Of a DNA stretch of 53,825 nt, positions 301-41,540 are shown piece after piece; positions within the stretch are counted from its first letter, which is position 1, and each line of letters starts with the position of its first letter. This stretch comes from Candidatus Eiseniibacteriota bacterium (GTDB taxonomy: Bacteria > Eisenbacteria > RBG-16-71-46 > SZUA-252), in the NCBI GenBank assembly GCA_038060295.1, contig JBBTHR010000034.1, forward strand, positions 1 through 53,825, given 5' to 3'. A program made the position numbers and the translations under genes. The notes beneath the pieces are model-generated. The model saw nothing but the letters and a program-made list of their open reading frames with translations, made no database searches and was not told where the DNA came from.

Positions 301-1242
301 TCAGGAGACGAGACCTTCCTCGAATTCCAACGTGCCGCGGAAGGGATCCAGGGTGGCCTTCGCTCCCAGGGGGAACGGCATGTTGCGGCCGCCGTGGCCG
401 GCGGGAAGCCCTCGCAGGACGGGGATCGCCAGGGGCGAGAGATGATCGCGGAGGACGGCCGGGAGCGATAGCTCGCGGTGCCCCTTCTGCGGGACGCAGT
501 TCGTGAACCCTCCCAGGACCGCTCCCTTCACGCCCGCCAGGGCGCCGGAGAAGCGGAGCGACGCCAGTAGGCCGTCGATCCGATAGGGCGCCTCGTTGAC
601 CTCCTCGAGGAAGAGGACGCTTCCCCGGAGCGATGGGAGCAGGCCGGTGAGGGCCGCGTAGTGGAGGAGGACGAGGTTTCCGCCCATCACCCTCCCCCGG
701 ACGCTCCGCGCGGGCCCGGCGAACCTCCGGGGGGCGGGCAGGACGCGCCACCGCGGATCGGGCCGCGGCGTGGTGACCCATTCCAGCCAGCGCCGCAGCT
801 CCCGGGCCGAGGAGCCGCCGAAACTCTGCGCGTTGGGACCGTGAAGGGTCCGCACGCCGGCGCGGAGCGAGAAGCCGGCGTGGATGTAGGTAGCGTCGGA
901 AAATCCGGCGTAGATCTTCGGGTCGCGTCGCATCGCCGCCCAGTCGATTTCCGGAGTGATCCGCATCGTCCCGTATCCCCCACGCGCCATCAGGACGCAG
1001 CGGACGTCGCGATTTCGAAGCGCTCGGTTCAGATCGTCGGCGCGCGCGGCGTCGCTTCCGGCCAGGTGGCCGCGGCGGTCGAAGAGGTGGCGGCCGAAGG
1101 TGATCGTGAAGCCCGCTTCCTCGAGGAGGCGTGCCCCCGCCAGGATCAACGGCCGCTTCACCGGGCCGGAAGGCGCGACCAGCTCGATCCGGTCGCCCGG
1201 ACGAAGTCGCGGAGGCGCGACGAGGGCGCGGCGAGCCGTCAT
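301..1242 (-). CDS. ldcA: LD-carboxypeptidase (peptidase S66, muramoyltetrapeptide carboxypeptidase)
   Basis: MTARRALVAPPRLRPGDRIELVAPS, RGGYG, and triad motifs GFSDAT (Ser), LEEVNE (Glu), PAGHG (His). ATG at 1242 overlaps the dacB stop (ATGA). Confidence 0.92.
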   Translation of the reverse strand: MTARRALVAPPRLRPGDRIELVAPSGPVKRPLILAGARLLEEAGFTITFGRHLFDRRGHLAGSDAARADDLNRALRNRDVRCVLMARGGYGTMRITPEIDWAAMRRDPKIYAGFSDATYIHAGFSLRAGVRTLHGPNAQSFGGSSARELRRWLEWVTTPRPDPRWRVLPAPRRFAGPARSVRGRVMGGNLVLLHYAALTGLLPSLRGSVLFLEEVNEAPYRIDGLLASLRFSGALAGVKGAVLGGFTNCVPQKGHRELSLPAVLRDHLSPLAIPVLRGLPAGHGGRNMPFPLGAKATLDPFRGTLEFEEGLVS

Positions 1243-2957
1243 CGTGGGAGTCTCCCCGGAGGAAGGAACGGCGCCCCGCGATGGCGCGGCGTGCGGGCGA
1301 GGAACGAGACGAGACGCTCCTCCGCGTCGCGCGCCGCCGCGACCGACCGGCGGGCGCCGTTCACCACCATGGCGAAGACGATCTCTTCCCCTTCCGCCGT
1401 ACGCAAATAGCCGGAGAGAGAGCTCACGTTCGTGAGCGTGCCGGTCTTCGCGCTCAGCTCGGCCCCGGGTGGGAGCGCGGCGAAGCGCCGTTCCAGAGTC
1501 CCCGGCTCCCCCGCCACCGCCAGCCCTCGTCGAAGCACGCCACGCAGCGAGTCCGCCCCATCCGACGCCGCGAGCCACCGGACCAGCGCCCGCGGCGTGG
1601 CCAGGTTCTGCGGGGAAAGGCCGGAGCCGTCGACCAGGGAGAGATCGAGCGTGTCGATCCCCGCCTCCGCGGCGAGCCGGTAGATCTGCCCAATCCCCTC
1701 GCGGCGGCTCTTCGACCACCCCGCGGGGCCGACCAGACGCAGGATCCCTTCGGCCTCGATATTCAGGCTGCGCGCGTTCACGGCCCCGATCGCCTCGGCG
1801 ACCGTGGTCGAGGGGAGCGCCGCCACCGTGGCGGAGCGGGAGGCCGACACCGAATCCCAGCCGGCGATGGGCGCGTCGCCGCTCCAGGCCCGATTCGATT
1901 CGGGCTCGATGCCACGCCACGCCTCAGGTCCCAGCGGGCCGCTCCCCTCCCGGCCGGGGAGGAGAAATCCGAGCGACACCTTCTTCAACTCGATTCCCTC
2001 CCGGCGCATGGCGGCCAGCAGCAGATGGGCCGCGGCCGAGTCGGGATCGGACATGGCGACCGACCGCTTCACGCTCCCGCCGCGCGGGACCATGCCGGAG
2101 AGTTCGAGAACGCGCGACCCGAGGGCCCAGCGCGGCGTGAGCCAGCCGGCGGCGCTCGAATCGCCGATCTCGATCCCGGTCACGCGCAGCGCGATCGGAG
2201 TCTCGGGAGGATCGAGGACCAGGCGCACCCTTCCCCGCTCCTCCGTGGCGGTCACGAGCGCCGAGTTGCCGTTCGCGAGGACCGGTCCGAGCGGAGCGCC
2301 GTAGGAGTAGGCGAGATCGTCCTGGCCCCACCCCGCCGGGTATGGTTCGCCCGCGAAGAGGGTCCGGTCGACGTAGAGCGTTCCCTCGAAGCGCCTCAAC
2401 CCGCCGGCGCGCAGCAGCGCGGCGAGCGAATCGAGGAGCCCTCGCGATCCGGGCTGGAGAAGCGGCACGACGTCCGGCATACCGCAGGGCCGAAGCGTCA
2501 GGTCGCCCTTGAAGTCGATGGAGCGCTCCCTGCCCCCCTTGCCGGAGCGTTTCACCTTCCCCCGCGCCTCCAGAATTGTCACGCGCCTCGCGAGCGGCCC
2601 GTGGAGCGCCAGGAGCGCCGCGGTGGGAAAGAGCTTGGCGTTGCTGCCGGGAATCAGCCGGCGGCCGTCGTGGTAGGCCAGGAGCGTGTCCAGGCGGTCC
2701 GAGGAGACGGCCAGAAGGCCGATTTGGGCGCCCCGTAGGTCCGAGCCCAGGATGGAGTCGAACGACTCGGCGTAGTAGCCGCGCGGTCCCTCCGGGGGAC
2801 GCGACGACCGCAGGCTGGCGGCGGACGCGGAACGCGCGCCGGAAACGCCCCCCAGGAGGAGCGCGATCGCGAGGCCGGCGGCCGCCACCCGAAACGGAGC
2901 GGGGCGGACCAGTAACGGTCCGCCCCGATAGGAAGCCTTCGACTTCTGTACGATCAA
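1239..2957 (-). CDS. dacB: D-Ala-D-Ala carboxypeptidase/endopeptidase, PBP4 (peptidase S13)
   Basis: PGSNAKL (SxxK), SLNIEAE (SxN), DGSGLS, AKTGTL (KTG); hydrophobic signal AAAGLAIALLLGG. Start uncertain: TTG 2957 overlapping the upstream TGA, or GTG 2888. Confidence 0.9.
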   Translation of the reverse strand: MIVQKSKASYRGGPLLVRPAPFRVAAAGLAIALLLGGVSGARSASAASLRSSRPPEGPRGYYAESFDSILGSDLRGAQIGLLAVSSDRLDTLLAYHDGRRLIPGSNAKLFPTAALLALHGPLARRVTILEARGKVKRSGKGGRERSIDFKGDLTLRPCGMPDVVPLLQPGSRGLLDSLAALLRAGGLRRFEGTLYVDRTLFAGEPYPAGWGQDDLAYSYGAPLGPVLANGNSALVTATEERGRVRLVLDPPETPIALRVTGIEIGDSSAAGWLTPRWALGSRVLELSGMVPRGGSVKRSVAMSDPDSAAAHLLLAAMRREGIELKKVSLGFLLPGREGSGPLGPEAWRGIEPESNRAWSGDAPIAGWDSVSASRSATVAALPSTTVAEAIGAVNARSLNIEAEGILRLVGPAGWSKSRREGIGQIYRLAAEAGIDTLDLSLVDGSGLSPQNLATPRALVRWLAASDGADSLRGVLRRGLAVAGEPGTLERRFAALPPGAELSAKTGTLTNVSSLSGYLRTAEGEEIVFAMVVNGARRSVAAARDAEERLVSFLARTPRHRGAPFLPPGRLPR

Positions 2958-3997
2958 AACGTGAGGCCGAGCGAGAACTGCTGGTTGTCGTCGAAGAACT
3001 CGCCCGCGTGGGAGCCGGCCCAATCGAAGTGGAACGGCCGGTCGCCCAGCTTGAGATTCACCCCGGCTCCGTAGGTGTAGGAGTAAACGTAGTCCTGCTG
3101 CCGGTCTTCCTTGCTCAGCGGCATCTGGCCCTGGAACCCGCCTCGCAGGTTGAGCCACTCGCCGATCGGAACGTCGGCGCCGATGCGGTACTCATCGGTC
3201 GAGAAGTTGTTGCCCTGGAAGGCTCCGTAGAGCCCCACATGGCGGTTCTCGCCGATCGGCAGGTCGTAGGCCATCCCGATCTGGAGATACGTCGGAATCT
3301 CGAACTCCGCCGTCTGCAGGCGCACCACGTGCGGCTGCGCGGAGGGGTCGCTTCCCGGAAGGGCTACCCGTTCCTCGAAGTTCGGACCGTCGAACCGCAT
3401 GTTCGGCCCGATGTTCTTCATCGCGAAGCCGAATCGGAGCCCGCGCCATCCGGTGTCGTATTGCACGCCGAGATCGACGGCGAAGCCGGAGGCCTGCGCG
3501 TCGGCGACCTTCTCGTTCACGAACGACGTGGTGAACCCGAGAAGGACGCGGTCGGTCATCCGCCGGGCGTAGCTAACCCCGACGACCGAGAAATTGGGAG
3601 TGAGGATCTCGCCCGTGCCCTCGGGCGCGTCCTCGGTGGTCACCGTGATGTCTCCGATGTTCAGCACCTTCGCGTGGAAGGCGATCTCTCCCTGGGACCC
3701 GAGGTGCGTGGCCACCGCGCCGTAGTTCACCTTGGCGTCCGCGAGATAGGTGCTGTAGGAGACCAGGGCCTGCGACTCGTCCGTCGAGGCGAGCGAGGCC
3801 GGGTTGTAGTAGAGATTCGCCAGTCCGCCGCCCAGCGCGACCGTCGACCCGCCGATGGCGATCGACGATGCCCCGACCGGGATGCGGAGTTCCTGCGCGC
3901 CCGACGTCCCGACGCGATCGAGCCCGCCCGCCGACGCGGCGGCGGCGGAGCCCAGAACCGCGACCGAGACCAGGACCTTCGTCACCCATGACTTCAT
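2954..3997 (-). CDS. PorV/PorQ-family outer-membrane beta-barrel
   Basis: Signal peptide MKSWVTKVLVSVAVLGSAAAASA; family-type motifs GTSGAQELRIPVGA...YYNPASLA, AVDLGVQY, GFAMKNIG; ends FSLGLTF. Alternative in-frame ATG at 4045. Confidence 0.82.
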   Translation of the reverse strand: MKSWVTKVLVSVAVLGSAAAASAGGLDRVGTSGAQELRIPVGASSIAIGGSTVALGGGLANLYYNPASLASTDESQALVSYSTYLADAKVNYGAVATHLGSQGEIAFHAKVLNIGDITVTTEDAPEGTGEILTPNFSVVGVSYARRMTDRVLLGFTTSFVNEKVADAQASGFAVDLGVQYDTGWRGLRFGFAMKNIGPNMRFDGPNFEERVALPGSDPSAQPHVVRLQTAEFEIPTYLQIGMAYDLPIGENRHVGLYGAFQGNNFSTDEYRIGADVPIGEWLNLRGGFQGQMPLSKEDRQQDYVYSYTYGAGVNLKLGDRPFHFDWAGSHAGEFFDDNQQFSLGLTF

Positions 3998-4058
3998 CAC
4001 GCTGCCCCTCCGTCCGTTGGAAGGATTCCATTGATCGTTTCGCATGGCGGCTCCTTCC

Positions 4059-7016
4059 TTAGAAGTTGTCGAGCCGTTCCTGCTCGACGAAGACCGCGAG
4101 CCGGTCGGTCTTGCTGCCGACGCCATCCACATCCACGCGATAGATGTAGATTCCGCTCGCGACCGGCAGGTTTCGGTCGGTGTTGAGGTCCCAGTTGATC
4201 GTGGCCACCGCTTGCTCGTCCGCCGTCGTCGCCTCGCGGCGAATCGTCCGCACGAGGTCGCCGCCGAGGTTGAAGATGCGAATCGTCACTCGCCCGGACG
4301 CCGGGATGTTCGTGAACTTAAGCGTGCGGTCGAACTGCGTGAGCTCGTACTTCGAACTGGCGTAGTACGGGTTCGGCACGGCCAGGATCTTCTTCACGTC
4401 GCGGCCGACGACCGTCCCGGGACCGCTCCCGACCTTCTGCGTCGTGAAGGTATAGGAGTCGGCGCTGGTGAATCGCTCCGAGATGATCCGGATCGTGGTC
4501 GGCGCGGGCCAGTCGACGCCGGAGGGATACGTGTCGTTCCTCGGGCGGAACCGGCCCCAGACCTGATCGGAGCCATCCGCCACATAGTCGGTCGACTGCG
4601 TGACCGGATTCGGGGCACCCGCCGTCGTGTCCCAATCCACCGACGCGTACGGGATGGTCCGGATGAAGACCTGGTCGCCCCAGGTCCAGGTCCCGGACAG
4701 GTCGCGGTCGCGCACCATGACACTCATCTTCACGTCGTCGAGCGTGTTGGAGAGAGAATTGAATCCGAGATCCCAGATCTCGAACGGGACCTTGTAGGTC
4801 GCCACGAAGGAGCCCTCTCCGCTTGCATAGCCCCAGGCGAACTCCGTCGTGTCGGGGAGGACGCGGATTTCGAAGTCGTGGTTCGTGGTGGAATGGAACG
4901 AGTAGACGCCGAGCGGAGTCGTCTGGAAGTGCCACGACCCCGTGCCGTCCGTCTGCCCGGCCGTCATGTCCGTCTGCGTCGTGGGCGAGGTCGCCTCCCC
5001 GAACGTCGACACTTGGCGCGGCGCGGTCACGCGGACCATGAGCCCTTCGACGACCGGGTTGTCGTAGTCGCCGCTCACGTTCGTCTGCCCCGTCAGGAGC
5101 GTCGTGCTCGTGGTCGTGTTCGTGAGCGTCCATTGTTCCAGACTGTCCATCTGGACCCGGTAGTTGTTTCCGGTGATGTCGTTCTGGATGAGCTGATCGA
5201 CGTCCGCGAGTCCGGTCGTGTTGAGCGGTCCCGTCGTCCCCGTGGCCGAGACGCCGAAAACAGCGCTGCTTGTGCGGGGCGCGATGGCGATCACATTTCT
5301 GGCGCTCTCGAGTACTTCGGAGATGGCTCCGACGGAGGCCCCCCCGACGATGTAGGGCGGCGCGTTGTTCACGTCGTACGAGTAGGCCGTGACCGCGTAG
5401 TAGTAGTCGCGGTTGTTGATCAGCCTCCCACCCACGATGGCGTCGTTCGTGATGTCGAGTTGGAACGAAAGCCCGTGGTCGGTGCCCGCCACTTTCAGCC
5501 GGCGCTCGACCGTGCCGCTCCCCGAGTTGAACTCGTCGCTGAAGATGTTCGTGACCCCGTTCACCTCGTCGTACGTGGTGATGACGGTCGGATCGGCGTC
5601 GGAGCTATTCGAGGACATCTGCCAGACGCGGAACCCCTCGAAGTGGAACTCCTGCCCGAGCGCCGGATTGGGCTGAACGTCGCCAACCGGCTCCGATCCC
5701 CACACGAGGCGCACGCCATTGTCGAGGGCCTGCGCGTAGATGGTGGGAGACGGCGGCGGCGCCGGAATGTCGAAGTTCAGATCGAAGACGAGCTGCGCGA
5801 CGGCGTCCTTCGCCTTCATGTCCGAGATCGACTCAAGCCGGTTGCCGCCCTGGCCGATGATGATGGCCGTCACGACCTCCTGCGTGTCTCCGGGAGCCAT
5901 CGTGAAGGGGCCCGCGGAGAGGAAGAGCCGACGATCGGCCGGATTCGAATCGAGCCATCCCGTGTTGGTCACAGGATCGCCGGAAACCTGGAAGGTCGTG
6001 ATCGGCTGGAGCGGGTCGTCGTTGGTGTAGATCGGAGATCCGTCCGCGTGGAGCCCCTGCATGTAATTGAAGGTCTCGTCGGGCGCGGCGGGATCGGTGC
6101 CGTTGATGTACTTGTTGAAGGAGGTCATCGGGAGCCGGACGAAGCCTCCGAGCCCGTCCGGTACCTTCGGGCCCTGGAAGAAGTCGTATCCGACCGCCGG
6201 CGGCCGGGCACCATACTGGCCGTCCGAGTTCGTGGCGTTGTAGCAATACCCCAGGCTCAGCGTCGTGTCGCAGCCGACCAGGTCGTCTGTGAACCCGCCC
6301 AGATCGGGATCGCTCCAGACCGAGACGTAGCTGCTGTCGAGCTGACTCCCGCCCTTGTTGATGAACAGCCATTTCACGAAGATGATGTTCCCGAGCGCGC
6401 CGGCGCGGTTGAAGGCGAACACCGTCTGCTGCACCTCGAGACCGAGGGGCGTGGTGCTCCCGGCGTCGTTCGTGTGGGTCCCCGGATCGGCGTCGTTGAA
6501 GACGCTCCAGATCGTCGCGTCGCCGAGGAGGAGCGGATCGCCCAGGCCATCGACGGGCGCGCCCTGCGGCACGGCGTTCGCGAGATAGTCGGCGTAGCCG
6601 ACGCCGCCGCGCTCGATTCGATAGTTACGGAACTCCGGCACGTCGGGCTGAAAGGTGCCGCCCGCCATCGGTCCCGGCGTGAATTCCTGCGAGTACTCCC
6701 CGATCGCCAGCCTTGTCTCCCCGGCCACCCTGGCGCCGACCCAGAGCCCCGCGGCGAAGACCGCGGTCCGGGTGCCGCCCTTGGGGTAGATGAGACCCCC
6801 GTTCCCGGTGATCAGGTCGTAGGCGATCGAACCGTGATTCGTCACGACCATGTCCAGATTGTTGACGTCCATCCGTCCGGAGTTGTCGATCGTCGCCCCG
6901 GCCCGATGCGGCGTCCGCGTCCGGGCGGCGGAGCCGGCACGCGGCGCCGCCCATGCCTCGGGAGCGGCGAGCGCGACCGCGAGCACCGCCACTCCCACCC
7001 ACTTCACAGATCGCAT
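4059..7016 (-). CDS. Large secreted protein (985 aa) with FlgD/T9SS-like C-terminal sorting domain; function unknown
   Basis: SD TAAGGAGG; signal MRSVKWVGVAVLAVALAAPEAWA; FN3-like segment FEGFRV...YYYAVTAY; CTD VPNPY...VTIRIFNLGGDLVRTI...WDL...VASGIYIYRV. Confidence 0.85.
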   Translation of the reverse strand: MRSVKWVGVAVLAVALAAPEAWAAPRAGSAARTRTPHRAGATIDNSGRMDVNNLDMVVTNHGSIAYDLITGNGGLIYPKGGTRTAVFAAGLWVGARVAGETRLAIGEYSQEFTPGPMAGGTFQPDVPEFRNYRIERGGVGYADYLANAVPQGAPVDGLGDPLLLGDATIWSVFNDADPGTHTNDAGSTTPLGLEVQQTVFAFNRAGALGNIIFVKWLFINKGGSQLDSSYVSVWSDPDLGGFTDDLVGCDTTLSLGYCYNATNSDGQYGARPPAVGYDFFQGPKVPDGLGGFVRLPMTSFNKYINGTDPAAPDETFNYMQGLHADGSPIYTNDDPLQPITTFQVSGDPVTNTGWLDSNPADRRLFLSAGPFTMAPGDTQEVVTAIIIGQGGNRLESISDMKAKDAVAQLVFDLNFDIPAPPPSPTIYAQALDNGVRLVWGSEPVGDVQPNPALGQEFHFEGFRVWQMSSNSSDADPTVITTYDEVNGVTNIFSDEFNSGSGTVERRLKVAGTDHGLSFQLDITNDAIVGGRLINNRDYYYAVTAYSYDVNNAPPYIVGGASVGAISEVLESARNVIAIAPRTSSAVFGVSATGTTGPLNTTGLADVDQLIQNDITGNNYRVQMDSLEQWTLTNTTTSTTLLTGQTNVSGDYDNPVVEGLMVRVTAPRQVSTFGEATSPTTQTDMTAGQTDGTGSWHFQTTPLGVYSFHSTTNHDFEIRVLPDTTEFAWGYASGEGSFVATYKVPFEIWDLGFNSLSNTLDDVKMSVMVRDRDLSGTWTWGDQVFIRTIPYASVDWDTTAGAPNPVTQSTDYVADGSDQVWGRFRPRNDTYPSGVDWPAPTTIRIISERFTSADSYTFTTQKVGSGPGTVVGRDVKKILAVPNPYYASSKYELTQFDRTLKFTNIPASGRVTIRIFNLGGDLVRTIRREATTADEQAVATINWDLNTDRNLPVASGIYIYRVDVDGVGSKTDRLAVFVEQERLDNF

Positions 7017-7051
7017 CCTGTCAGCCCTCCTTAGCCTACGGGTCCAGAACG

Positions 7052-10000
7052 TCAGAAGCTCCAACGGGCGCCGAACCGAACCATGCGCGGGATGCCGTAG
7101 AGATTCGGGTTGTATTCGGCCAGACCGAACCGCTCGGCGGCCACGTCCGCTCCGTACGTCCCGGCGTTGGTGTCGAGGAACGACTGGCCGTCGGGCGTCT
7201 CTAGGAAGTTGGTCGTCACGGCGCTTCCGCTGCCGGTGTAGACGGTGTTCACGTTGTCGCGATCGAACAGATTCAGCACCCAAACGTAGAAGTCGAGATC
7301 CTGCCGGGCGATGGAGACCGTCTTGTTCAGCTTCGCGTCCACCTGGAACGTCCAGGGGCCGTAGCGGCTGTTGAGCGGCCCGATCGGCTGCGTCGCCACG
7401 GCCGCCAGCGTGACCTCGTTGTAGACGGTCGTCGGCGTGTAGGGCGTCCCGCTCGCGGCGTTGACCAGGACGTTGAGTCCGGCATTCTCGAGGAATTTCG
7501 TGGCGCCCCATGTCGGGCCCTGTCCCTTGTCGTACCGGAAGTCGAAATTCATCGAAACCTTGTGCCGCTGGTCGAAGGCGAGCGGCGTGGAGATCTTCGG
7601 CGTCTCGCTGGCGGTCCAGGCGATGTTCCGCTGGGTCTGCGAAACGGAACCGGTGCCCTGGGCCCACGAGAGGCTGTAGTTGGCGCCCATCGAGACGAGA
7701 CCCACCCTACGAAGCGTGTAAGCGATGTCGAGCCCCTTGATCGTCGCGAAGTCGCGGTTCCGGTAGGTGGAGAACGAGTTCGGCGACGAGGGGATGTTCG
7801 TGATCTCGACGAGGTCTTTCACGTCCTTGTAGTAGGCGGTCGCCTGAATGCGCGAGCGATCGGTCGGCGTGTGCGTGAGGCCCAGTTCGTAGGCCGTCGT
7901 CTGCTCCGGCTTGAGGTTCGGATTTCCGAAGCCGACGAAGTAGCCACCCGTCCGGATCTTGTGCTCCAGGAAAGCGTAGGAGACGTAGAGATCCTGGAGG
8001 TTCGGCTGCTGGAAGAACTTTCCGTAATTGACGTGAATGAGCGTCTGATCCGAGACGGGGAATCCGACCCCGAGCCGGGGGCTCAAGCGGTTGTAGACCT
8101 TCGAATCCTCGAGATCGGTATCCTGGAGCCTCGAGTCGTTCAAGGCGTCCGGATCGAGAGGGACCGACTCGCTGCGGAGCGACTTCGTGTTCGGCGTCAG
8201 GTAGTCCCAACGAAGCCCCGTGTTCAGCACCAGGCCGAGGCGCTCGTACTTCCCCTGCACGTAGAGGGAGGCGACCGTCGGCGTCTTCGGCTTGTCCAGG
8301 TCGGTGTCGTAGAGACCGTTCCCGTTCGAATCGTTGAACAACTCGCCGACGTCGTAGCTGCCGTTGGCGTTGCCGTCGGTGAAGGTCTCGCCCTCGTCGA
8401 CTTCGTTCCCCAGCGCGTCGTAGCCGTAGCGGTCCACGTCGCGGGTGTTGTCCGGATTCCCGTTCGCGTCGTAGAGCTGCACCGGGAAGTAGTGGTTGTA
8501 GTAACGGAGCTTGTGCTTCTGGTAATCGCCGCCCGCCTTCAACTGGAAGTCCTTCGTCATCTGGCTGGAGTAGTTCACGGCGGCGCCGATGTAGGACGAC
8601 TTCCGGTGGAGGAAGTCGTCGAAGACGTGCTCCCCGGTCGGATCGCCGTTCGAGTCGAGGTCGTCCGGGCCGTAGAAGAAGAGCGCCTCGTTCGGATCGA
8701 AGCGCGGATTTCCGGTCGGCCGGGCGTACGCCTTCAGATCGTCGAAGTAGACGCCGTCGCCGCGCTTCCGCTCGGTGGTGAAGTAGTTCGCCTTCACCTC
8801 GTAGTAGGCGCGGCTGCTGATGCTGTGATTCCAGGTCGAATAGAACGAGTAGTTCAGATCCTCGTACCGCGGCGCGTGCTTGAGATTGAAGCGGTAGGTG
8901 TTCGCGTACTGCTGCCAGTCCTCCCGGTTCCACGTGCCGCCGAACTTCAGCGTCTGGAGCGGCGTGGGATTGAACGTCAGTTTTCCGACGGTCGCCCACG
9001 AGTCGCTGGAGTTGGAGGGGAGGATCCCCTCGGCGAACGAGGATTTCTGGTCCAGCGAGTAGACCACCTCGTCCGCGATCGACGAGGGGTCGCGGTCGAG
9101 GTTGTACTTGCGCTCGCCGGAGAAGTAGAAGCTCCCCTTCTTGAAATTCGGGACCAGGGGGCCGCCCAGAGAGAGCGAGTAGATGTTGTTGTCGCGGCGA
9201 TCGGAGCCGAGGGCAAGGAAGTCCGAGACGCCCTCGATCGATCCGAAGTAGCGGTCGCGTCCCTCCTTCGTGACGACGTTCACCACGCCCGAATTGATGC
9301 GGCCGTACTCGGCGTTGAACCCGCCCGAATGAACGACCACTTCCTCGATCGCGCCGCTGTTGATCAGGGTGGTCGAGTTGCCGGTGAGAGGATCCTGCTG
9401 CGAGAAGCCGTCCACGTAGTAGGCGACCTCGTTCGGGCGCCCGCCGCGGATGATGAGCGTGTTCCCGTTGTTCGACTCGTTGTCGATGTTCAGCTTGAAG
9501 TTCACGACGCCCGCCTGCTGCGCGACGGCGTCCTGGTAGCCGCGGAGAGGCTGGTTACGGATTTCCTCGCCGCTCAGGAAGCGGGTCGTCCCGGTGACGT
9601 CCTTCTGGATCAGCGGCCGCTCGGCCTTCACCTCGACCTCTGGCACGTTCTGCAAGACGGTCGATTCCATGGAGAAGTCGAGTTTCGTGACGAAGTCGGG
9701 GAAGACCTGGACTTCCTGGCGGGCCTGCGGGACGAAGCCGAGGAGCGAAGCCCGCACCGTGTACTTGCCGGCAGGCAGGTTCACGATGAAGAAGTTCCCC
9801 AGTGCGTCCGTCACGGCGCCGCGCTTCAGCTCAGGGATGGAGATGCTGACCATCCCGAGCGGATCGCCGCTCTTCCCGTCCCGAACCGTCCCCGAGATCT
9901 GGCCTGTCGTTCCCGCCCAGGCAACCCCGGAAACAAAAACGGCGACCGCCATGGACATCATGGCGACGCCTAGCCAACTCCGCGACCGAGGTCGATACAT
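7052..10000 (-). CDS. TonB-dependent receptor with N-terminal carboxypeptidase-regulatory-like domain
   Basis: GTTGQISGTVRD...GKYTVRASLLGF; plug IRGGRPNEVAYYVDG...GGFNAEYG; GNPNLKPEQTTAYELG; ends PRMVRFGARWSF. SD GGAGG before ATG 10000; alternative ATG at 10036. Confidence 0.92.
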   Translation of the reverse strand: MYRPRSRSWLGVAMMSMAVAVFVSGVAWAGTTGQISGTVRDGKSGDPLGMVSISIPELKRGAVTDALGNFFIVNLPAGKYTVRASLLGFVPQARQEVQVFPDFVTKLDFSMESTVLQNVPEVEVKAERPLIQKDVTGTTRFLSGEEIRNQPLRGYQDAVAQQAGVVNFKLNIDNESNNGNTLIIRGGRPNEVAYYVDGFSQQDPLTGNSTTLINSGAIEEVVVHSGGFNAEYGRINSGVVNVVTKEGRDRYFGSIEGVSDFLALGSDRRDNNIYSLSLGGPLVPNFKKGSFYFSGERKYNLDRDPSSIADEVVYSLDQKSSFAEGILPSNSSDSWATVGKLTFNPTPLQTLKFGGTWNREDWQQYANTYRFNLKHAPRYEDLNYSFYSTWNHSISSRAYYEVKANYFTTERKRGDGVYFDDLKAYARPTGNPRFDPNEALFFYGPDDLDSNGDPTGEHVFDDFLHRKSSYIGAAVNYSSQMTKDFQLKAGGDYQKHKLRYYNHYFPVQLYDANGNPDNTRDVDRYGYDALGNEVDEGETFTDGNANGSYDVGELFNDSNGNGLYDTDLDKPKTPTVASLYVQGKYERLGLVLNTGLRWDYLTPNTKSLRSESVPLDPDALNDSRLQDTDLEDSKVYNRLSPRLGVGFPVSDQTLIHVNYGKFFQQPNLQDLYVSYAFLEHKIRTGGYFVGFGNPNLKPEQTTAYELGLTHTPTDRSRIQATAYYKDVKDLVEITNIPSSPNSFSTYRNRDFATIKGLDIAYTLRRVGLVSMGANYSLSWAQGTGSVSQTQRNIAWTASETPKISTPLAFDQRHKVSMNFDFRYDKGQGPTWGATKFLENAGLNVLVNAASGTPYTPTTVYNEVTLAAVATQPIGPLNSRYGPWTFQVDAKLNKTVSIARQDLDFYVWVLNLFDRDNVNTVYTGSGSAVTTNFLETPDGQSFLDTNAGTYGADVAAERFGLAEYNPNLYGIPRMVRFGARWSF

Positions 10001-10241
10001 TGTTCGCCCTCCCCTGTATTTCTGTGGAAGCGCCATTCGAGGGTCACTCCTTCCCTGGTTTCACGGCGATTGCCGCGCGGCGGCCTCCGCCGACTTGCCA
10101 TACACCCCTTCTCGGGGCCCCTCCTCGACTTCGATCCACGGTACCCGGCTTTTCTCTTGTGACTCCTCCTTCACGCTCAAGACATGTCTCCAGCGGCGAG
10201 GCGGCAGGCCTGGCCGCAATCGCTTGCCCTCTATGGAGGTC

Positions 10242-10270
10242 AAGGTAGGAACCCACCCCTGGGCTGTCAA
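10242..10270 (-). promoter_or_regulatory. sigma70-type promoter of the TonB-receptor operon
   Basis: Minus strand TTGACA (10270-10265), 17-nt spacer, TACCTT (10247-10242). Confidence 0.75.
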
Positions 10271-10294
10271 GGGAATTTGCGGAGTAATCGGCGA

Positions 10295-10352
10295 AGGGCC
10301 GCCCGGCTTGATCGCCGAGCGGCCCTCGATTCGTCGGGGCGCGAAGGCCCCG
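10295..10352 (-). terminator. Tandem GC-rich hairpins downstream of the orphan barrel gene (terminator or mRNA stabiliser)
   Basis: Inverted repeats AGGGCCGC/GCGGCCCT (10295-10326) and CGGGGC/GCCCCG (10335-10352); no clear U-tract. Confidence 0.5.
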
Positions 10353-10370
10353 GGAGTCTGTCGCTTGTTT

Positions 10371-11705
10371 CTAGTAGTGGTAGGTAGCCGAGACGCGCGT
10401 GAAGGCCGCCTGCTCCGAGCCGGAGAGGAAATTGCCGCCCGTGAAGGGGAACTCCTCGTTGAGCGTCATGTCGATGTCGAGGTTGTTCCACCGGATGCCG
10501 GTGCCGAGCGCCAGGTTGAAGTCCGTGAAGCGGATCTTCTGGCTGAACGTGTTCGTCGGAGAGTCGAAATCCGACTGGTCGGAGCGATCGTTGGTGATCA
10601 TGTTCGTGGCGCCGATGCGAACCTTCAGCCAGCTCGTGGCCTGGGTCTCGACGGCGGCGAAGAGGATCGGGAGCATCGTCGACTTCTCTTCGAGCGACTT
10701 GGTATCGCCACTGATCAGGGCGTCATTGTTGTCGCCGCGATCGTACTGGTGCTTCGTCTGCCACGCCGCCAAGCCCCAGATCAGCGTGTTGTTGTCGTTC
10801 ACCTTCATGTTATTGGAGATGCCGATTCCGTAGTTCTTGTAGGTCTCCTCGGCGGAACGCGACAACACCGTCGCCGACGCGTTCGTGACTTCCCAGGAGA
10901 GGTCGTTGTTCACGTACCAGCCCGCGACGTACCACTGGCTAGCCGCGCTCTTGTTCATGAAGTACCGGGCGAGGAGCGCATAGGACGCGTTGCCGCCGTC
11001 TTCCCACTTCTCAGGGGTCGGGGCGTAGAACGTGCCCGACTCGGCGCGCTCGAGCGAGTAGCGGCGATAGGTGGCCGCGATGTCGAGACGATTGTCGTCC
11101 TGCATGTGAAGGGCGATGGACGGCGTGATTCCGTAGGTGTTCAACTCGACGCCGGTCCCGGTGATGGCGTCCGAGAAGAAGGAGGTTCCGAACGGGTACG
11201 GATCGAAGGAACCGAAGTCGTTGCCGCGCGCCGTGTAGGTGCCCGGCGTCGGCGTGTTGAACTCGCCTTCGTAGTACGAATTCGCGACATCGAAGCGAAC
11301 CGCGAAGTCCATCTTGGTGAACGCCTTGCCCCAGATCAGGTCGAACCACTCGTTATTGACGTTGCTCGAGCCGTCGTGGAGGTTCAGCGAGCTCTGCTTC
11401 ATCTGGACCGCGACGATGCCTAAACGCGGGAAATTGCGAATGAGCGTGAAGCTCTGGTCTTCCGGCGTGAATGCATCCTCGGACTCGCTCGGATTGTTGC
11501 CGAGTTCCGCGAGCACGAGGTTGTTCTGGCGAACGACCGACGCCGGATACGTGTAGATGTTCACGTAGTCGTCGGTGAGCTGGCTCAGGACCGGCGACGA
11601 AAGTCCCATGCCCTCGACGCGGGAAAGGGATGCGTGGCCCATGCCCGCCGTCACGGCGAGCAGGGCGATGACGCTGAGAACCGCAATCAGCTTGCGCTGA
11701 AACAT
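10371..11705 (-). CDS. Putative outer-membrane beta-barrel (porin-like) of unknown family, 444 aa
   Basis: SD AAGGAGG; signal MFQRKLIAVLSVIALLAVTAGMGHA; SRVEGMG...DDYVNIYTYPA; alternating beta-strand pattern; BAM-type C-terminus FTRVSATYHY. Confidence 0.75.
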   Translation of the reverse strand: MFQRKLIAVLSVIALLAVTAGMGHASLSRVEGMGLSSPVLSQLTDDYVNIYTYPASVVRQNNLVLAELGNNPSESEDAFTPEDQSFTLIRNFPRLGIVAVQMKQSSLNLHDGSSNVNNEWFDLIWGKAFTKMDFAVRFDVANSYYEGEFNTPTPGTYTARGNDFGSFDPYPFGTSFFSDAITGTGVELNTYGITPSIALHMQDDNRLDIAATYRRYSLERAESGTFYAPTPEKWEDGGNASYALLARYFMNKSAASQWYVAGWYVNNDLSWEVTNASATVLSRSAEETYKNYGIGISNNMKVNDNNTLIWGLAAWQTKHQYDRGDNNDALISGDTKSLEEKSTMLPILFAAVETQATSWLKVRIGATNMITNDRSDQSDFDSPTNTFSQKIRFTDFNLALGTGIRWNNLDIDMTLNEEFPFTGGNFLSGSEQAAFTRVSATYHY

Positions 11706-12038: not shown

Positions 12039-13409
12039 CTACCGGGACTGCTGTCCCAGAGCCTGATCAAGCTCGAATCTGCCGAATCCGTTCCGATCGA
12101 CGAAGACGAACCGGACCTGGTCCTTGTAGTAGAACCAGATCTCTTCCGGAGGCCGATCGAAGTTGAAGGGGTTCCGCACGACCTCGTCGGGGGCGCCGTT
12201 TTGGATGTAGATCCGCCCCATGTCCGTGCGCCACCCGGCGATGCCGACCGCGAAGTGCTGGTTCGCGTACTGCACCCGGCGATAGAACTCCTCCAGCCGC
12301 TCGTTCCGTTCGGTCTCGGGGGTTGGATCGAGGCGGCGCCAGAACTGTTCCCAGTACGCCTTCCGGGCATCGGGACCCTCGAGCCGCTCCATCTCGTCCA
12401 CCTCGGCGGGCGCGGCCACGTAGCGGAGGACTTCCAGGGAGGAGCGCGATTCCCACGCGAGGTTCTCGCTCGTCTGCTCGACCTCGAAGGCCCGCTCACG
12501 CCGGATCGGCTCGGCTTTCTTCTTGCCCGGCGCGGCAATCTGGGGACCCACCAACTCCAGGACGACGCGGTAGCTCCCTGCTTCCAGGCCCCGGAGCCGC
12601 GGCCGAAGGAGGAACGGGGTGCGGGCCCCGGCCCGGACGATCGTGGTATCCCCTTTCCAGACAGCCTCCTGTAGCTCGTTCACCACGCGCACGGCGATCC
12701 GGTACGACTCCCCGGCGCCCGCCGCCGCGAAGGAGCGCCCGTCCACGACCTCCCCGATCACGGCCAGGGCGGGTAGGTCGAGCCCGAACCGTCTCGAGGG
12801 GACCGGGACGAAGCGTTCGCGGGAAGTGCCGCCCGCCGACGACGAATCGGATACCGTGCCGAGGGAGAGGTCGCTGAACCAGACCGACTGCTTCGACGCG
12901 GAGGGGACCTCGAAGGGAATTTCGGTCCCCGAGGCGCGCTCCGCGACGAGATCGGTGATGACGACCCGCACGCGATACTTGCCGGCCGGCGCTCGGAGCG
13001 TGACGTGGTCGATCAGGTCCGCGCCCCGAAGTCTCGTGTCCGCGTAACTCGCCACTCGCACGCTCTTCTGGAAGACCTCCCCGGTCGCCTGGGCCCCTCC
13101 CTTAGACTTGTAGAAGATGACCCGGACTTCGTAGGACGCGTGGTACCCCTCGCTCGTCCGCTCGAAGAGGAGCTCGTCGCGCACCATCCGGTAGTCAATG
13201 CGGACGTCGGCGCCTCCGTCTCCCGGCTGAAGGGTCGCGTCGACGGCGAATCGGGGCCGTGTCGCGCTCGTGCCAGGAGCCGGGGCGTCGTCGTGCATGG
13301 CCGGGCCGGGATTGGGGTACTGGGCCGAGGCGGGCGACACGGCCACGCCCAGCCAGACGGCCAGGAGAACCGAGAGGGCGCGCGGGAGGCGAGGGAGAGG
13401 GAGGGTCAT
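12039..13409 (-). CDS. GWxTD domain-containing exported protein
   Basis: FWRRLDPTPET...EEFYRRVQYAN...GWRTDMGRIYIQNGAPD; N-terminal signal peptide ending ASA. Confidence 0.9.
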   Translation of the reverse strand: MTLPLPRLPRALSVLLAVWLGVAVSPASAQYPNPGPAMHDDAPAPGTSATRPRFAVDATLQPGDGGADVRIDYRMVRDELLFERTSEGYHASYEVRVIFYKSKGGAQATGEVFQKSVRVASYADTRLRGADLIDHVTLRAPAGKYRVRVVITDLVAERASGTEIPFEVPSASKQSVWFSDLSLGTVSDSSSAGGTSRERFVPVPSRRFGLDLPALAVIGEVVDGRSFAAAGAGESYRIAVRVVNELQEAVWKGDTTIVRAGARTPFLLRPRLRGLEAGSYRVVLELVGPQIAAPGKKKAEPIRRERAFEVEQTSENLAWESRSSLEVLRYVAAPAEVDEMERLEGPDARKAYWEQFWRRLDPTPETERNERLEEFYRRVQYANQHFAVGIAGWRTDMGRIYIQNGAPDEVVRNPFNFDRPPEEIWFYYKDQVRFVFVDRNGFGRFELDQALGQQSR

Positions 13410-13416
13410 GAGGCGA

Positions 13417-15987: not shown

Positions 15988-16077
15988 TCGAACCGACGCT
16001 AGCACGCCACGGTTAACCCCTCAAGAATGAACTCTTTCCGCTTGTCGCCCCCGGTCCATTCCGGGTACCGTTCCGCC

Positions 16078-16755: not shown

Positions 16756-16829
16756 TGGGGGATCGTCCAGTGGTAGGACACGTGGCTCTGGACCACGGTA
16801 CAGGGGTTCGAATCCTCTTCCCCCAGCCA
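16756..16829 (+). tRNA. tRNA-Gln(CTG)
   Basis: Acceptor stem TGGGGGA/TCCCCCA, anticodon arm CGTGG-CT-CTG-GA-CCACG, GGTTCGAATCC, encoded CCA. Confidence 0.97.
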
Positions 16830-16860
16830 ACTTAACGATCCGCGAGTGGAAGCCGGATGG

Positions 16861-16935
16861 GGCGCTATCGTCTAGGGGTCAGGACGGATGGTTCTCAGCC
16901 ATCAAACCGGGGTTCGATTCCCCGTAGCGCTACCA
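16861..16935 (+). tRNA. tRNA-Glu(CTC)
   Basis: Acceptor stem GGCGCTA/TAGCGCT, anticodon arm GATGG-TT-CTC-AG-CCATC, GGTTCGATTCC, encoded CCA. Confidence 0.97.
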
Positions 16936-16979
16936 ACCGGCTTCCCCCATTTCCCCATCCAACCCGGTCGAATCCCGCG

Positions 16980-17006
16980 GAACCCGACGAACCCGACGAA
17001 CCCGAC
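16980..17006. repeat. 9-bp tandem repeat (GAACCCGAC)x3
   Basis: Read directly between tRNA-Glu and the SD of the M16 gene. Confidence 0.85.
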
Positions 17007-17024
17007 ACGGAAAGGATCCATCTC

Positions 17025-26745: not shown

Positions 26746-26839
26746 GGAATCGATTGTACCCATGCTGGTTAACGAGGTGATTCGTGGGCCAAAGCCGGGC
26801 TGCGACTTCCCACTAGTCTACTCCTCGCGCCGGCGCGAC

Positions 26840-38326: not shown

Positions 38327-38349
38327 GCTCGTTCCGTCCTTGGCGGGAG

Positions 38350-38363
38350 ATGACGCCGATCAT
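38350..38363. promoter_or_regulatory. Putative Crp/Fnr operator 1 (ATGA-N6-TCAT)
   Basis: ATGACGCCGATCAT overlaps the -10 and predicted start site of the regulator's promoter. Confidence 0.6.
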
Positions 38364-39539: not shown

Positions 39540-39565
39540 CTCCACCCAGAATAGGAGACCATTCC

Positions 39566-41461: not shown

Positions 41462-41479
41462 CGACGAACGCGGAATCGA

Positions 41480-41507
41480 GGGGGCGGAGCGGAGCGCTCC
41501 GCCCCTC
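41480..41507 (+). terminator. Intercistronic stem-loop after nosZ
   Basis: GGGGCGGAGC (41481-41490) pairs with GCTCCGCCCC (41496-41505); weak U-tract. Confidence 0.6.
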
Positions 41508-41540
41508 TTGGTTCCCGACTCGAATCAAAGGAGTCTCCCG

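Follow-up and report, generated by a model that had tools for sequence, protein, structure and literature searches.

A Candidatus Eisenbacteria MAG carries three strictly linked genes on one strand, encoding a TonB-dependent receptor, a large secreted protein (here called the cargo) with its own subtype of type IX secretion (T9SS) C-terminal domain (CTD), and an outer-membrane barrel of the PorV/PorQ family. SprA, PorU and PorV are encoded in the same genome, and SusD is absent from the genomes searched. From this arrangement we infer a route of export, retention of the CTD, cooperation between receptor and cargo, and a type of substrate: the barrel would act as an anchor in the style of PorQ and PorZ, holding a T9SS-delivered capture protein beside a transporter, and the triad would be a lipoprotein-free analogue of SusC/SusD. 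We put the probability of this reading at about one in two.

Organization and conservation of the locus

The window, meaning the whole stretch of 53,825 nucleotides analysed, contains the three genes where an earlier note, made from the DNA letters, had placed a receptor, a 985-aa secreted protein and a PorV/PorQ barrel (Table 1). That note's description of strong Shine-Dalgarno sites and gaps of tens of bases also holds: the sites read directly from the DNA (GGGGAGGG, AAGGAGGG and GGACGGAGG) are strong for every gene, the receptor-cargo gap is 35 nt, and the cargo-barrel gap is 61 nt, or 13 nt with the ATG at 4045 as the start. A signal peptide is present in all three products. The single promoter that it had proposed found no backing, as a sigma-70 consensus scan of the window returned 0 sites (0.8 expected) and there is just the 370-nt gap 5' of the receptor; promoters of other types may operate in these phyla. 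This leader has no Rfam riboswitch, two tRNAs being the only Rfam matches in the window. At the other end, a hairpin lies 27 nt 3' of the barrel stop codon in a region (MFE -35.6 kcal/mol, z -2.0) overlapped by the start of the S13 peptidase gene. It was missed by the terminator scan because it has no T-run, and it may be a transcript end or a stabilizer; the orthologous locus L025 has a canonical terminator (12-bp stem plus T8) 3' of its barrel gene.

Table 1. Features of the triad locus and its flanks, with positions in the window.
Feature	Position	Strand	Basis or remark
TonB-dependent receptor (TBDR)	7052..10000	minus	982 aa from ATG at 10000
985-aa secreted all-beta "cargo" (predicted)	4059..7016	minus	C-terminal family matches, AF2 model
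PorV/PorQ-family 347-aa outer-membrane barrel	2954..3997	minus	NF033709
Cargo CTD segment, residues 868-985	4062..4415	minus	used for complex prediction
11-bp GC-rich hairpin	2900..2927	minus	fold
370-nt non-coding leader upstream of receptor, presumed promoter region	10001..10370	minus	
444-aa porin-like outer-membrane protein, upstream neighbour	10371..11705	minus	NF053618 PopA-family
GWxTD-domain protein	12039..13445	minus	PF20094 61.9 bits, TIGR04514 109.4 bits
S13 D-Ala-D-Ala carboxypeptidase, directly downstream	1239..2956	minus	Peptidase_S13 214.6 bits

Searching with the cargo found 26 loci, 17 of which show receptor, cargo and barrel in that order along a single strand; contig ends truncate four more, which are consistent with this order, and five have the N-domain only. 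Another 20 loci sampled across the phylum yielded 14 full triads. Because L032 is the same record as L029, the distinct triad loci number 30, from Eisenbacteria and from MAGs labelled Ignavibacteria and Zixibacteria; their gene order is constant, and the receptor lies directly upstream of the cargo at every complete related locus. Identity to the window's triad, taken over the three proteins together, ranges from 90% down to 38-54%. A second set on contig C16 of the same genome, made up of a receptor, a 918-aa protein and a barrel, is 27, 23 and 24% identical to the window's proteins. The triad described in the earlier note is a conserved unit, and the co-phylogeny suggested there also agrees, with pairwise distances of the three proteins correlating over 24 triads (Pearson 0.91-0.94), a value expected of linked genes and no proof of co-evolution. 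Proteins that combine the same head with an ordinary CTD have a receptor or barrel adjacent in 0 of 6 and 0 of 5 cases. The N-domain family itself is found in 198 of the 206 genomes of the phylum, including 119 of 121 high-quality ones (the tally includes genome G073).

Outside Eisenbacteria, the triad alone is common to the loci and the flanking genes differ. The porin-like neighbour, which matches NF053618 at 64.4 bits (under the cut-off of 150), has relatives upstream of the triad in seven loci (L007-L009, L012, L013, L017 and L030); unnamed ORFs of similar size occupy its position in five others (L035, L041-L043 and L045), and it is missing from the loci labelled Ignavibacteria. Its conservation beside the triad extends to only some of the phylum, and it lies outside the universal core. 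A GWxTD gene is near the triad in L035, L036, L039, L041, L042, L043 and L045, and synteny of this gene, the porin-like protein and the triad is limited to Eisenbacteria; our literature search found no paper on "GWxTD". The S13 gene is downstream on the same strand in the close relatives and also in L039 and L045, whereas L036 has it in convergent orientation. L032-L034/L037, L035, L038 and L041-L043 lack it, with a convergent glutamate dehydrogenase replacing it in the last five of these. The S13 peptidase is probably not part of the system. Overall, the triad is flanked by genes of housekeeping or envelope function (TatA, shikimate kinase, glutamate dehydrogenase, LipB and the S13 peptidase), and the locus differs from a typical PUL in having neither a glycoside hydrolase nor a regulator nor an inner-membrane transporter.

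Receptor, cargo and barrel

The receptor scores above the Pfam cut-offs for all three of its domains: CarboxypepD_reg (60.6 bits), Plug (46.0 against 23.9) and TonB_dep_Rec_b-barrel (104.4 against 27). These follow the signal peptide in the order CarboxypepD_reg, a V.V.AERPL strand, Plug and a barrel of the 22-strand TonB_dep_Rec type. The pre-plug strand resembles a TonB box in sequence and, like the Plug motifs, is conserved across 24 receptor orthologs. No SusC/RagA model appears among the receptor's 15 NCBIfam matches (E <= 0.1), no equivalog is among its NCBIfam matches, and a sequence search of the PDB gave no match at E <= 0.001. A third receptor of the same family, on contig C31 of this genome, adjoins a GH113 gene in a cluster that also contains an Amidase_3 protein.

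The cargo begins with a signal peptide at residues 1-23 (MRSVKWVGVAVLAVALAAPEAWA) and a disordered linker to about residue 40. Next come the N-domain, a supersandwich of about residues 41-417, and FN3-like sandwiches at about 420-580; a beta region fills residues 580-875, and the protein ends in a divergent T9SS CTD (about 875-985) with a conserved F.E.E.L..F tail. Its AF2 model (pLDDT 83.1, pTM 0.70) is all beta with few short helices. In this model, the N-terminal 380 or so residues are predicted to have the supersandwich fold of GH15/GH94/GH116 N-domains: the head matches the N-domains of GH15, GH94, GH116 and GH65 enzymes at VIA Z 17-20.6, aligning 236-271 residues with an rmsd of 2.9-3.9 A and 7-12% sequence identity. 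What the cargo has in common with GH15, GH65, GH94 and GH116 is the supersandwich alone; the (alpha/alpha)6 catalytic domain is absent. No GH Pfam match was found anywhere in the cargo, and the head has no match to any model of Pfam or NCBIfam. The earlier description of a protein lacking a recognizable catalytic motif is consistent with these results, as its sole family matches are C-terminal and below cut-off and its model is all beta, and comparisons that included Foldseek matched no characterized enzyme family.

The head defines a family that has no name and counts 10,210 representative clusters, and an ESM Atlas search with it returned unnamed clusters only, most commonly from Zixibacteria, Bacteroidota and Fidelibacterota. 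It is conserved, with many invariant Asp/Asn residues. Among 30 wider family members scanned, the N-domain is accompanied by dockerin (4), cohesin (1), CBM20 (1), CBM9 (1) and Laminin_G_3 (2) domains as well as by PKD and T9SS tails, and no catalytic Pfam domain was found. The region 580-875, folded alone, gave a pLDDT of 87.3, 0 Foldseek matches at E <= 0.001 and, as its best VIA-wide match, the variable domains of FlgK/FlgL (Z 8.5, 86 residues); as modelled, it has no convincing structural match, which does not in itself prove a new fold. Relatives of the cargo are annotated throughout as "hypothetical" or "T9SS type A sorting domain" proteins.

At its C-terminus the cargo matches FlgD_ig (17.5 bits, cut-off 27) and TIGR04183 (17.4, cut-off 23), both below cut-off. 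It is homologous to the CTD of PorU, matching that portion of the PorU model at 29.8 bits (E 1.2e-7) and PDB entry 6za2_A at E 9e-4. The model has a beta-sandwich at residues 898-975. The best matches of the triad CTD are the CTDs of PorU and PorZ. An alignment of 22 triad cargos (A5) has 16 invariant columns, and the motifs include VPNPYY, QFDR, RIFNLxGDLVRT, WDL, LPVASGxY and FxExERLxxF. A profile built for the triad CTD scores 127-184 bits on 14 triad cargos, compared with 23-28 bits on four of six non-triad N-domain proteins and no match (E <= 1e-5) on the other two; over all comparisons, ordinary CTD proteins with this N-domain score 23-30 bits. Within the genome it scores 184 bits on the window's cargo, 63 on one small protein, 39 on the C16 cargo and at most 34.5 on 23 other CTD proteins. 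The non-triad N-domain proteins have ordinary FlgD_ig CTDs at 32-41 bits, over the Pfam cut-off that the triad tail fails to reach. Judged by these comparisons, the tail is a distinct, divergent subtype of T9SS CTD in the lineage of the type A class (TIGR04183/PF18962/FlgD_ig-type).

The barrel matches the PorV/PorQ family model NF033709 over its full length (157.6 bits, cut-off 90; positions 1-326 of 326) and the equivalogs for PorQ (NF033711, 86.4 bits, cut-off 220) and PorV (NF033710, 54.6 bits, cut-off 250) far less well than their cut-offs. By these scores it is a member of the PorV/PorQ family that is neither PorV proper nor PorQ proper. A weak Pfam match to Toluene_X was also found, and the sole PDB sequence match is Flavobacterium johnsoniae PorV (6h3i_F, E 5.9e-8). 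In a tree, the triad barrels of the main type, 23 in number, group as a single clade (support 87/99), and the triad barrel is distinct from the PorU-adjacent PorV on contig C141.

Prediction of a complex between the barrel and the CTD segment gave an ipSAE of 0.90 in each of three runs, against 0.00 for the best of three controls, so that the interface suggested in the earlier note passed in silico. Of 157 solved complexes, 116 attain this mark, as do 2 of 215 mismatched pairs, counts that hold here only roughly because custom alignments were used. Contacts agree by at least 92% between runs, and partner pLDDT is at least 78. The predicted interface joins a conserved barrel segment (27-39) to invariant CTD motifs and takes in the invariant residues P14, N15, P16, G52, G88 and E111 (CTD-segment numbering). 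The model supports binding of the cargo CTD to its co-encoded barrel; the score may reflect likeness to solved PorV structures, the 6h3i and 8gl* entries sharing the matched PorV sequence, and does not imply an exclusive pairing. The private anchor of the earlier note is backed in part, by the distinct CTD subtype of the triad and by the separate PorU-linked PorV, and none of the three outcomes that the note had listed as refuting its reading came about.

Secretion background and related systems

As the earlier note had observed, the window has neither sprA nor porU; the PorU-linked porV is likewise missing from it, and all three are found elsewhere in the genome. SprA is on contig C84 (233 bits; 523 with neighbouring pieces), and PorU is on C141 (450 bits against a cut-off of 420) with a PorV adjoining it. 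The genome has five PorV-family genes, among them two others, on C13 and C41, that come after a CTD-protein gene. A 1412-aa protein of the window (26817..22582) with Peptidase_C25, FG-GAP and FlgD_ig domains matches the PorU model weakly (42.9 bits) and is not PorU. The window also encodes an LVIVD protein (16005..13420) whose CTD is of the ordinary FlgD_ig kind. The reported lack of susD also held, as SusD_RagB and SusD-like_3 matched in 0 of 5 genomes and in the Bacteroides thetaiotaomicron positive control. The proposed genome search for secretion components was thus successful for SprA and PorU and returned nothing for the motor: models for GldK, GldL, GldM and GldN (TIGR03525, TIGR03513, TIGR03517 and TIGR03523) had no match in this 72% complete genome, GldL, GldM and GldN had none in four to five related genomes, and the phylum of the L015 genome, sampled with 41 genomes, likewise gave no match for GldM. 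As these searches had no positive control, absence of GldKLMN is not established. We found no literature linking Eisenbacteria with type IX secretion.

A comparison of the triad with SusC/SusD (RagA/RagB) shows a shared plan, in which a CarboxypepD_reg-Plug-barrel transporter gene stands beside the gene for a large surface partner (a placement proposed for the triad), several copies occur per genome, and capture precedes import (again proposed for the triad). Unlike SusD, the triad partner is predicted to be all beta with a T9SS tail rather than a TPR lipoprotein of the SusD family; the triad also adds a barrel as putative holder, its receptor matches no SusC/RagA model, and its locus has no enzymes or regulators. 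The PorQ-PorZ and PorV-PorU pairs offer a parallel for the other two genes. PMC10202324 describes the CTDs of PorZ and PorU as uncleaved and retained on PorQ and PorV, respectively, and proposes "cognate PorV-like barrels"; there, too, a PorV/PorQ-family barrel goes with one particular CTD protein, a pairing that is predicted for the triad, whose CTD is nearest those of PorU and PorZ and whose barrel scores higher with the PorQ model than with the PorV model. In contrast, the triad barrel and cargo fall far below the equivalog cut-offs, the cargo has neither the propellers of PorZ nor a C25 peptidase, and the pair is linked to a TonB-dependent receptor.

Type B cargo, as presented in PMC9143113, is anchored by PorP-like barrels through non-covalent CTD-barrel binding, and in SprF-SprB and PorP-PG1035 a barrel gene stands beside its own cargo gene as in the triad. 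The triad barrel is instead of the PorV/PorQ family and the CTD of the FlgD_ig/type A lineage; the PorP/SprF model TIGR03519 reached only 17.9 bits, on the C16 paralog. The Bacteroides BAM complex supplies a further likeness, PMC12578637 describing a FadL homolog, BamG, that uses extracellular loops to hold the surface protein BamH on BamA. In both, a FadL-family barrel and a surface protein would be set against a larger barrel, which in the triad is a TonB-dependent receptor rather than BamA, and the triad's surface protein is no lipoprotein. A literature search with subscription journals outside its reach found no description of an operon of receptor, CTD protein and PorV-like barrel. As the idea of a cognate PorV-like barrel is already published, what is new is that, in phyla without SusD, such a pair is tied to a TonB-dependent receptor.

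A proposed capture complex and its alternatives

In the reading that we prefer, Sec would export receptor, cargo and barrel, and the cargo would then cross the outer membrane via the SprA translocon of the genome's T9SS by means of its divergent CTD. This CTD would not be cut by PorU and would stay non-covalently on the co-encoded barrel, much as Porphyromonas gingivalis retains PorZ on its PorQ barrel and PorU on its PorV barrel. The barrel would thereby anchor the cargo at the cell surface next to the receptor, where the supersandwich head, with its carbohydrate-enzyme-type fold, may capture a polymeric and probably glycan-containing substrate and hand it to the receptor for TonB-energized import. 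Several observations sit less easily with this scheme. The locus has the gene content described above rather than that of a degradation cluster, with no glycoside hydrolase, regulator or inner-membrane transporter among its housekeeping and envelope neighbours; the supersandwich domain in the GH enzymes that the head resembles is itself no proven binding module; and the T9SS would have to be energized with GldK, GldL, GldM and GldN undetected in searches lacking a positive control. In a stronger version, the three proteins would form one stable complex in which the cargo, held solely by its uncleaved tail on a private PorQ-like barrel, captures substrate for the transporter; this would be the standard uptake system of SusD-less FCB phyla such as Eisenbacteria, the present orthologous group perhaps specializing in bacterial cell-wall debris. 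We regard this version as less probable than not.

A near-universal family in the phylum would suit a core role in the envelope no less than substrate-specific uptake, and the large barrel, the FadL-type barrel and the surface protein could form an outer-membrane complex that is made constitutively and serves biogenesis, a surface coat or envelope maintenance, resembling BamG-BamH, for which PMC12578637 gives a precedent. The phylum-wide tally of the N-domain family, a single orthologous triad held at 38-54% identity across the phylum's families, and housekeeping or cell-wall neighbours with no regulators or degradative enzymes would all agree with such a role. However, the receptor retains the full architecture of a transporter, with conserved Plug motifs and the TonB-box-like strand, the wider head family travels with dockerin, cohesin and CBM modules, and the sister receptor on C31 adjoins a GH113 gene; we consider a core envelope role unlikely. 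The uptake of peptidoglycan fragments, with this orthologous group capturing and importing muropeptides that dead cells release or that arise in the cell's own turnover, drew on neighbouring genes. In L015, L019, L021-L025, L027 and partly L028, which carry Ignavibacteria or Zixibacteria labels, ORFs of matching size and order follow on the same strand, and in L025, the only annotated locus, these encode NlpC/P60+SH3, LD-carboxypeptidase S66, MR_MLE epimerase and Amidase_3 proteins. The S13 DD-carboxypeptidase after the barrel in the window's family, L039 and L045, and the Amidase_3 protein of the C31 cluster, point the same way. This lead was downgraded, as the strong intrinsic terminator of L025 separates the barrel from the cell-wall genes, the S13 gene is inconsistent in orientation and presence (convergent in L036 and lacking from the loci listed above), and the unrelated upstream genes for NadA, E2 and LipB are equally conserved in those loci, so that adjacency of cell-wall genes may merely reflect relatedness. 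We now think muropeptide uptake quite improbable.

The three genes might also be only loosely associated, the cargo being an ordinary T9SS substrate, the barrel either an additional PorV shuttle of general use or a channel of the FadL type that admits hydrophobic compounds, and the receptor a mere neighbour. The barrel's place in the FadL/PorV superfamily, with its Toluene_X match, the number of PorV-family genes in the genome and the homology of the cargo CTD to the general CTD class would allow for this. An order kept in all the distinct loci and in a paralogous copy as diverged as that on C16, a CTD subtype of the triad cargos' own, and the consistent separation of same-head, ordinary-CTD proteins from receptor and barrel genes speak against it, and this explanation, the least probable considered here, is already disfavoured.

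TonB-dependent transporters with surface partners are central to the nutrition of Bacteroidota, and to our knowledge the characterized partners, such as SusD and BtuG, are all lipoproteins. If the anchored-capture reading is true, entire phyla of uncultured bacteria from soil, sediment and groundwater would build the same kind of machine differently, with type IX secretion and a dedicated barrel replacing lipoprotein export. A further question is how export of the T9SS type operates where a GldKLMN motor is not recognizable. The roles of PorV/PorQ-type barrels would extend past the housekeeping of secretion, a head family of about 10,000 representative clusters with no Pfam or NCBIfam model would gain a function, and the triad could be used to mark uptake loci in the genomes of lineages that lack SusD.

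Architecture and conservation of the triad

The three-gene set described in the earlier note, comprising a TonB-dependent receptor, a 985-aa cargo and a PorV/PorQ-family barrel, was confirmed in place by domain models, coordinates (see table), intergenic gaps of 35 nt (receptor/cargo) and 61 nt (cargo/barrel), and a strong Shine-Dalgarno site at each of the three co-directional starts. The single promoter claimed for it was not recovered, as a promoter scan gave no sigma-70-like site; the 370-nt leader upstream of the receptor contains no Rfam element, and an 11-bp GC hairpin lies 3' of the barrel gene. The host genome is a 2.23-Mb MAG (156 contigs, 72% complete, ~70% G+C) in which the window is contig C34, and the closest public relatives of the locus carry the label Candidatus Eisenbacteria. 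The barrel falls far under the equivalog cut-offs of the PorV (54.6 bits) and PorQ (86.4 bits) models. The cargo's family matches are solely C-terminal and weak (FlgD_ig, 17.5 bits, cut-off 27; TIGR04183, 17.4, cut-off 23); the PorU model, through its CTD part, scores 29.8 bits there.

Triads and other features of the window and related loci
Feature	Location	Strand	Details
TonB-dependent receptor	window, 10000..7052	minus	signal peptide; CarboxypepD_reg 60.6 bits, Plug 46.0, barrel 104.4
985-aa cargo	window, 7016..4059	minus	Sec signal peptide
347-aa PorV/PorQ-family barrel	window, 3997..2954	minus	NF033709 157.6 bits, cut-off 90
Two tRNA genes	window, 16756-16826 and 16861-16932	plus	second overlaps 5' end of M16 frame
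Long M16-peptidase open frame	window, 16836-19820		must start further downstream because of tRNA overlap
1412-aa protein	window, 22582-26817	minus	Peptidase_C25, FG-GAP repeats, FlgD_ig CTD
Crp-family regulator	window, 37613-38359		precedes nitrous-oxide reductase cluster
Nitrous-oxide reductase cluster	window, 39209-43582	plus	NosZ with nos_propeller and cupredoxin, plus NosD
M6-like peptidase with FG-GAP repeats and CTD, then PorV/PorQ-family barrel	C13 (L003 11479-15734)		barrel 168.7 bits
2466-aa Ig-repeat CTD protein, then PorV-like barrel fused to C-terminal TPR repeats	C41 (L004 5186-14487)
Giant CTD protein and barrel-TPR fusion	L046 1608-7734
Two TldD/PmbA-family metallopeptidase genes	C16 (L002 2745-5527)		precede second triad; contig ends right after barrel
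Third receptor of family	C31 (L052 1492-10127)		674 bits, triad-receptor profile
312-aa protein with triad-subtype tail	C74 (L053 3163-4098)		63 bits; 33% identity over 101 residues
Barrel gene in two pieces	L028 8968-9967		residues 4-89 and 90-347, abutting in different frames

Scanning species-representative genomes with the cargo, and checking gene content by tblastn, gave 26 loci. Receptor, cargo and barrel occur in order on one strand in 17; contig ends cut four more, whose remaining content is consistent with a triad, and in the other five only the first 400-440 cargo residues are common (56-62% identity), with receptor and barrel absent nearby. Some of the triads come from MAGs with Ignavibacteria and Zixibacteria labels, where identity is 39-46% for each protein of the set. 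Within the phylum, a profile of the cargo's N-terminal head domain matched 198 of 206 genomes (119 of the 121 high-quality ones), a tally that takes in the unpublished genome G073, mostly with 1-7 copies per genome and a maximum of 9. Twenty head-domain places were sampled over 9 of the phylum's 18 families, and 14 hold full triads, their cargo CTDs scoring 127-184 bits on the triad-CTD profile. The receptor is absent at the remaining six, where CTDs score 23-28 bits in four and have no match in two; at one of the six places, L046, the nearest thing to a barrel is a weak PorV-like/TPR fusion at a distance of two genes. With duplicate records removed (L032 = L029, L046 = L016, L048 = L018), the three genes are kept in order in 30 distinct loci. 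In the comparison of gene histories proposed in the note, pairwise distances of the three proteins correlate in 24 triads (Pearson 0.91-0.94), but linkage alone predicts such a correlation. A second triad in the same genome, on contig C16, is 27, 23 and 24% identical to that of the window (receptor, cargo, barrel), which indicates an ancient duplication of the whole cassette. A PorV-family tree, unresolved at its base and with long-branched outliers, groups the 23 main-type triad barrels in a single clade (support 87/99) that excludes the PorU-linked PorV.

The split barrel gene of L028 is a frameshift or assembly error. Five loci labelled Acidobacteriota, Limnocylindrales, Bacteroidota or Hyphomicrobiales (L010, L013, L020, L026, L030) are 57-74% identical to the Eisenbacteria cargo; their contigs have probably been mis-binned in public MAGs.

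The cargo and its head domain

At least 1,372 of the 8,000 candidates scored are relatives of the cargo; among the matches listed, each either has no name or is annotated as "hypothetical" or as a "T9SS type A sorting domain" protein, and none carries a Pfam domain other than an occasional FlgD_ig. The AlphaFold model (pLDDT 83.1, pTM 0.70) is all beta, with a supersandwich at residues 40-417 that aligns with the N-terminal domains of GH15, GH65, GH94 and GH116 enzymes (VIA Z 17-20.6; 236-271 residues, rmsd ~3-3.9 Å, 7-12% identity). Unlike these enzymes, the cargo lacks the (alpha/alpha)6 catalytic domain, and in sequence and structure searches it matched no characterized enzyme. Structure searches with residues 580-875, folded separately (pLDDT 87.3), brought no convincing match. 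The head is the most conserved part of the cargo, with invariant N60, Y108, D175, N220, D236, D238, D245, D308, D361 and R363 kept also in a 26% identical paralogue; its DPDLGG..DD motif is likely a calcium site.

The head lacks a Pfam or NCBIfam model, although its profile, searched against 1.84 billion representatives, matched 10,210 clusters (E <= 0.001), 3,311 of them at E <= 1e-30. In 30 atypical-length members it is found with dockerin (4), cohesin (1), CBM20 (1), CBM9 (1), Laminin_G_3 (2), PKD, FG-GAP and T9SS tails, and never beside a recognized catalytic domain. These partners point to an extracellular role tied to carbohydrates.

Type IX secretion components and predicted barrel binding

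The window indeed lacks sprA and porU, and both are found elsewhere in the genome: SprA, by profile search, on contig C84, and the true PorU on C141 (450 bits, cut-off 420), directly adjoining the genome's best PorV-family gene. SprA is present in all five genomes searched. The motor half of the suggested profile check came out differently: models for GldK, GldL, GldM and GldN had no match in this genome, the last three had none in 4-5 related genomes either, some of these single-contig, and GldM matched none of 41 from a second phylum, with no positive control ringing in any of these searches. SprA, PorU and PorV together with no Gld match is the pattern in this and five or more related genomes. 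The motor may be missing or have diverged too far, or the models may be drawn too narrowly. The reported absence of susD extends beyond the window: SusD_RagB and SusD-like_3 matched none of five genomes (this one, three Eisenbacteria and that of L015), and a B. thetaiotaomicron control rang.

Across the genome, some two dozen open frames match the PorU model in its CTD part. The 1412-aa window protein resembles gingipains and PorU in its domains, but with 42.9 bits on the PorU model it is not the true PorU. Five PorV-family genes are present: the PorU-linked PorV, the triad barrels of the window and C16, and two that follow other CTD proteins, on C13 and C41. The PorU-linked gene scores higher with the PorV model (144 bits) than with the PorQ model (91 bits), and the triad barrels show the reverse order. 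The C13 barrel has a very long branch in the tree. The C41 and L046 loci, each with a giant Ig-repeat or propeller CTD protein and a barrel-TPR fusion (635-868 aa), represent, in two genomes, another way of pairing a cargo with a barrel of its own.

With its motifs (VPNPYY, QFDR, RIFNLxGDLVRT, WDL, LPVASGxY and a conserved terminal FxExERLxxF), the triad CTD is a recognizable subtype. The models nearest to it are the PorU CTD and, for locus L025, the PorZ CTD, which the review PMC10202324 gives as the two retained CTDs, on PorV and PorQ, respectively. The interface proposed between barrel and CTD was recovered in complex prediction from alignments of 21 (barrel) and 22 (CTD) rows: all three runs scored 0.90, and none of the three controls exceeded 0.00; at least 92% of contacts are shared between runs, with partner pLDDT of at least 78. 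The score mark, met by 116 of 157 solved complexes and 2 of 215 mismatches, is rough here as our own alignments were used. This prediction supports, but does not show, binding of the CTD to its co-encoded barrel; because structures holding PorV have already been solved, the pass may reflect likeness to them, and it is silent on exclusivity. The C74 protein with a triad-subtype tail has neither barrel nor receptor nearby.

Gene neighborhoods and the proposed role of the triad

In one Eisenbacteria context, a GWxTD protein and a porin-like protein precede the triad, which is followed either by an S13 DD-carboxypeptidase, sharing the triad's strand in the family of the window and in L039 and L045 but convergent in L036, or by a glutamate dehydrogenase in convergent orientation. 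In another, pilin-like genes lie upstream and TatA and shikimate kinase downstream. The universal part of the neighborhood is the triad alone, and the linkage data speak against a loose, coincidental association of its genes, which we disfavor. The third receptor, on C31, adjoins a 452-aa unknown protein, GH113 and an Amidase_3 plus Cu_amine_oxidN1 protein, with no head-domain protein or barrel beside it.

Loci labelled Ignavibacteria or Zixibacteria have four same-strand genes after the triad, which in L025, the sole annotated locus of that set, encode NlpC/P60, LD-carboxypeptidase, an L-Ala-D/L-Glu-epimerase-type enzyme and Amidase_3. As cell-wall enzymes these would fit uptake of muropeptides (peptidoglycan fragments), but a canonical terminator separates them from the L025 barrel gene and unrelated upstream genes are kept equally in those loci, and thus we regard this substrate as quite improbable. 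The main rival, a constitutive envelope complex, draws on the near-universal head family in the phylum, the housekeeping neighbors and the BamG-BamH precedent (PMC12578637), and seems unlikely, if less so than muropeptide uptake.

We favor, at a probability of about one half, a capture-and-import apparatus. Its component ideas, cognate PorV-like barrels and a transporter plus surface partner, are already known; we found no description of their combination in literature outside subscription journals. In this apparatus, the T9SS would deliver the cargo, whose tail the barrel would retain, as PorQ does that of PorZ, so anchoring the protein next to the TonB-dependent receptor. The anchored cargo would then stand in for the SusD-type lipoprotein that these phyla lack.
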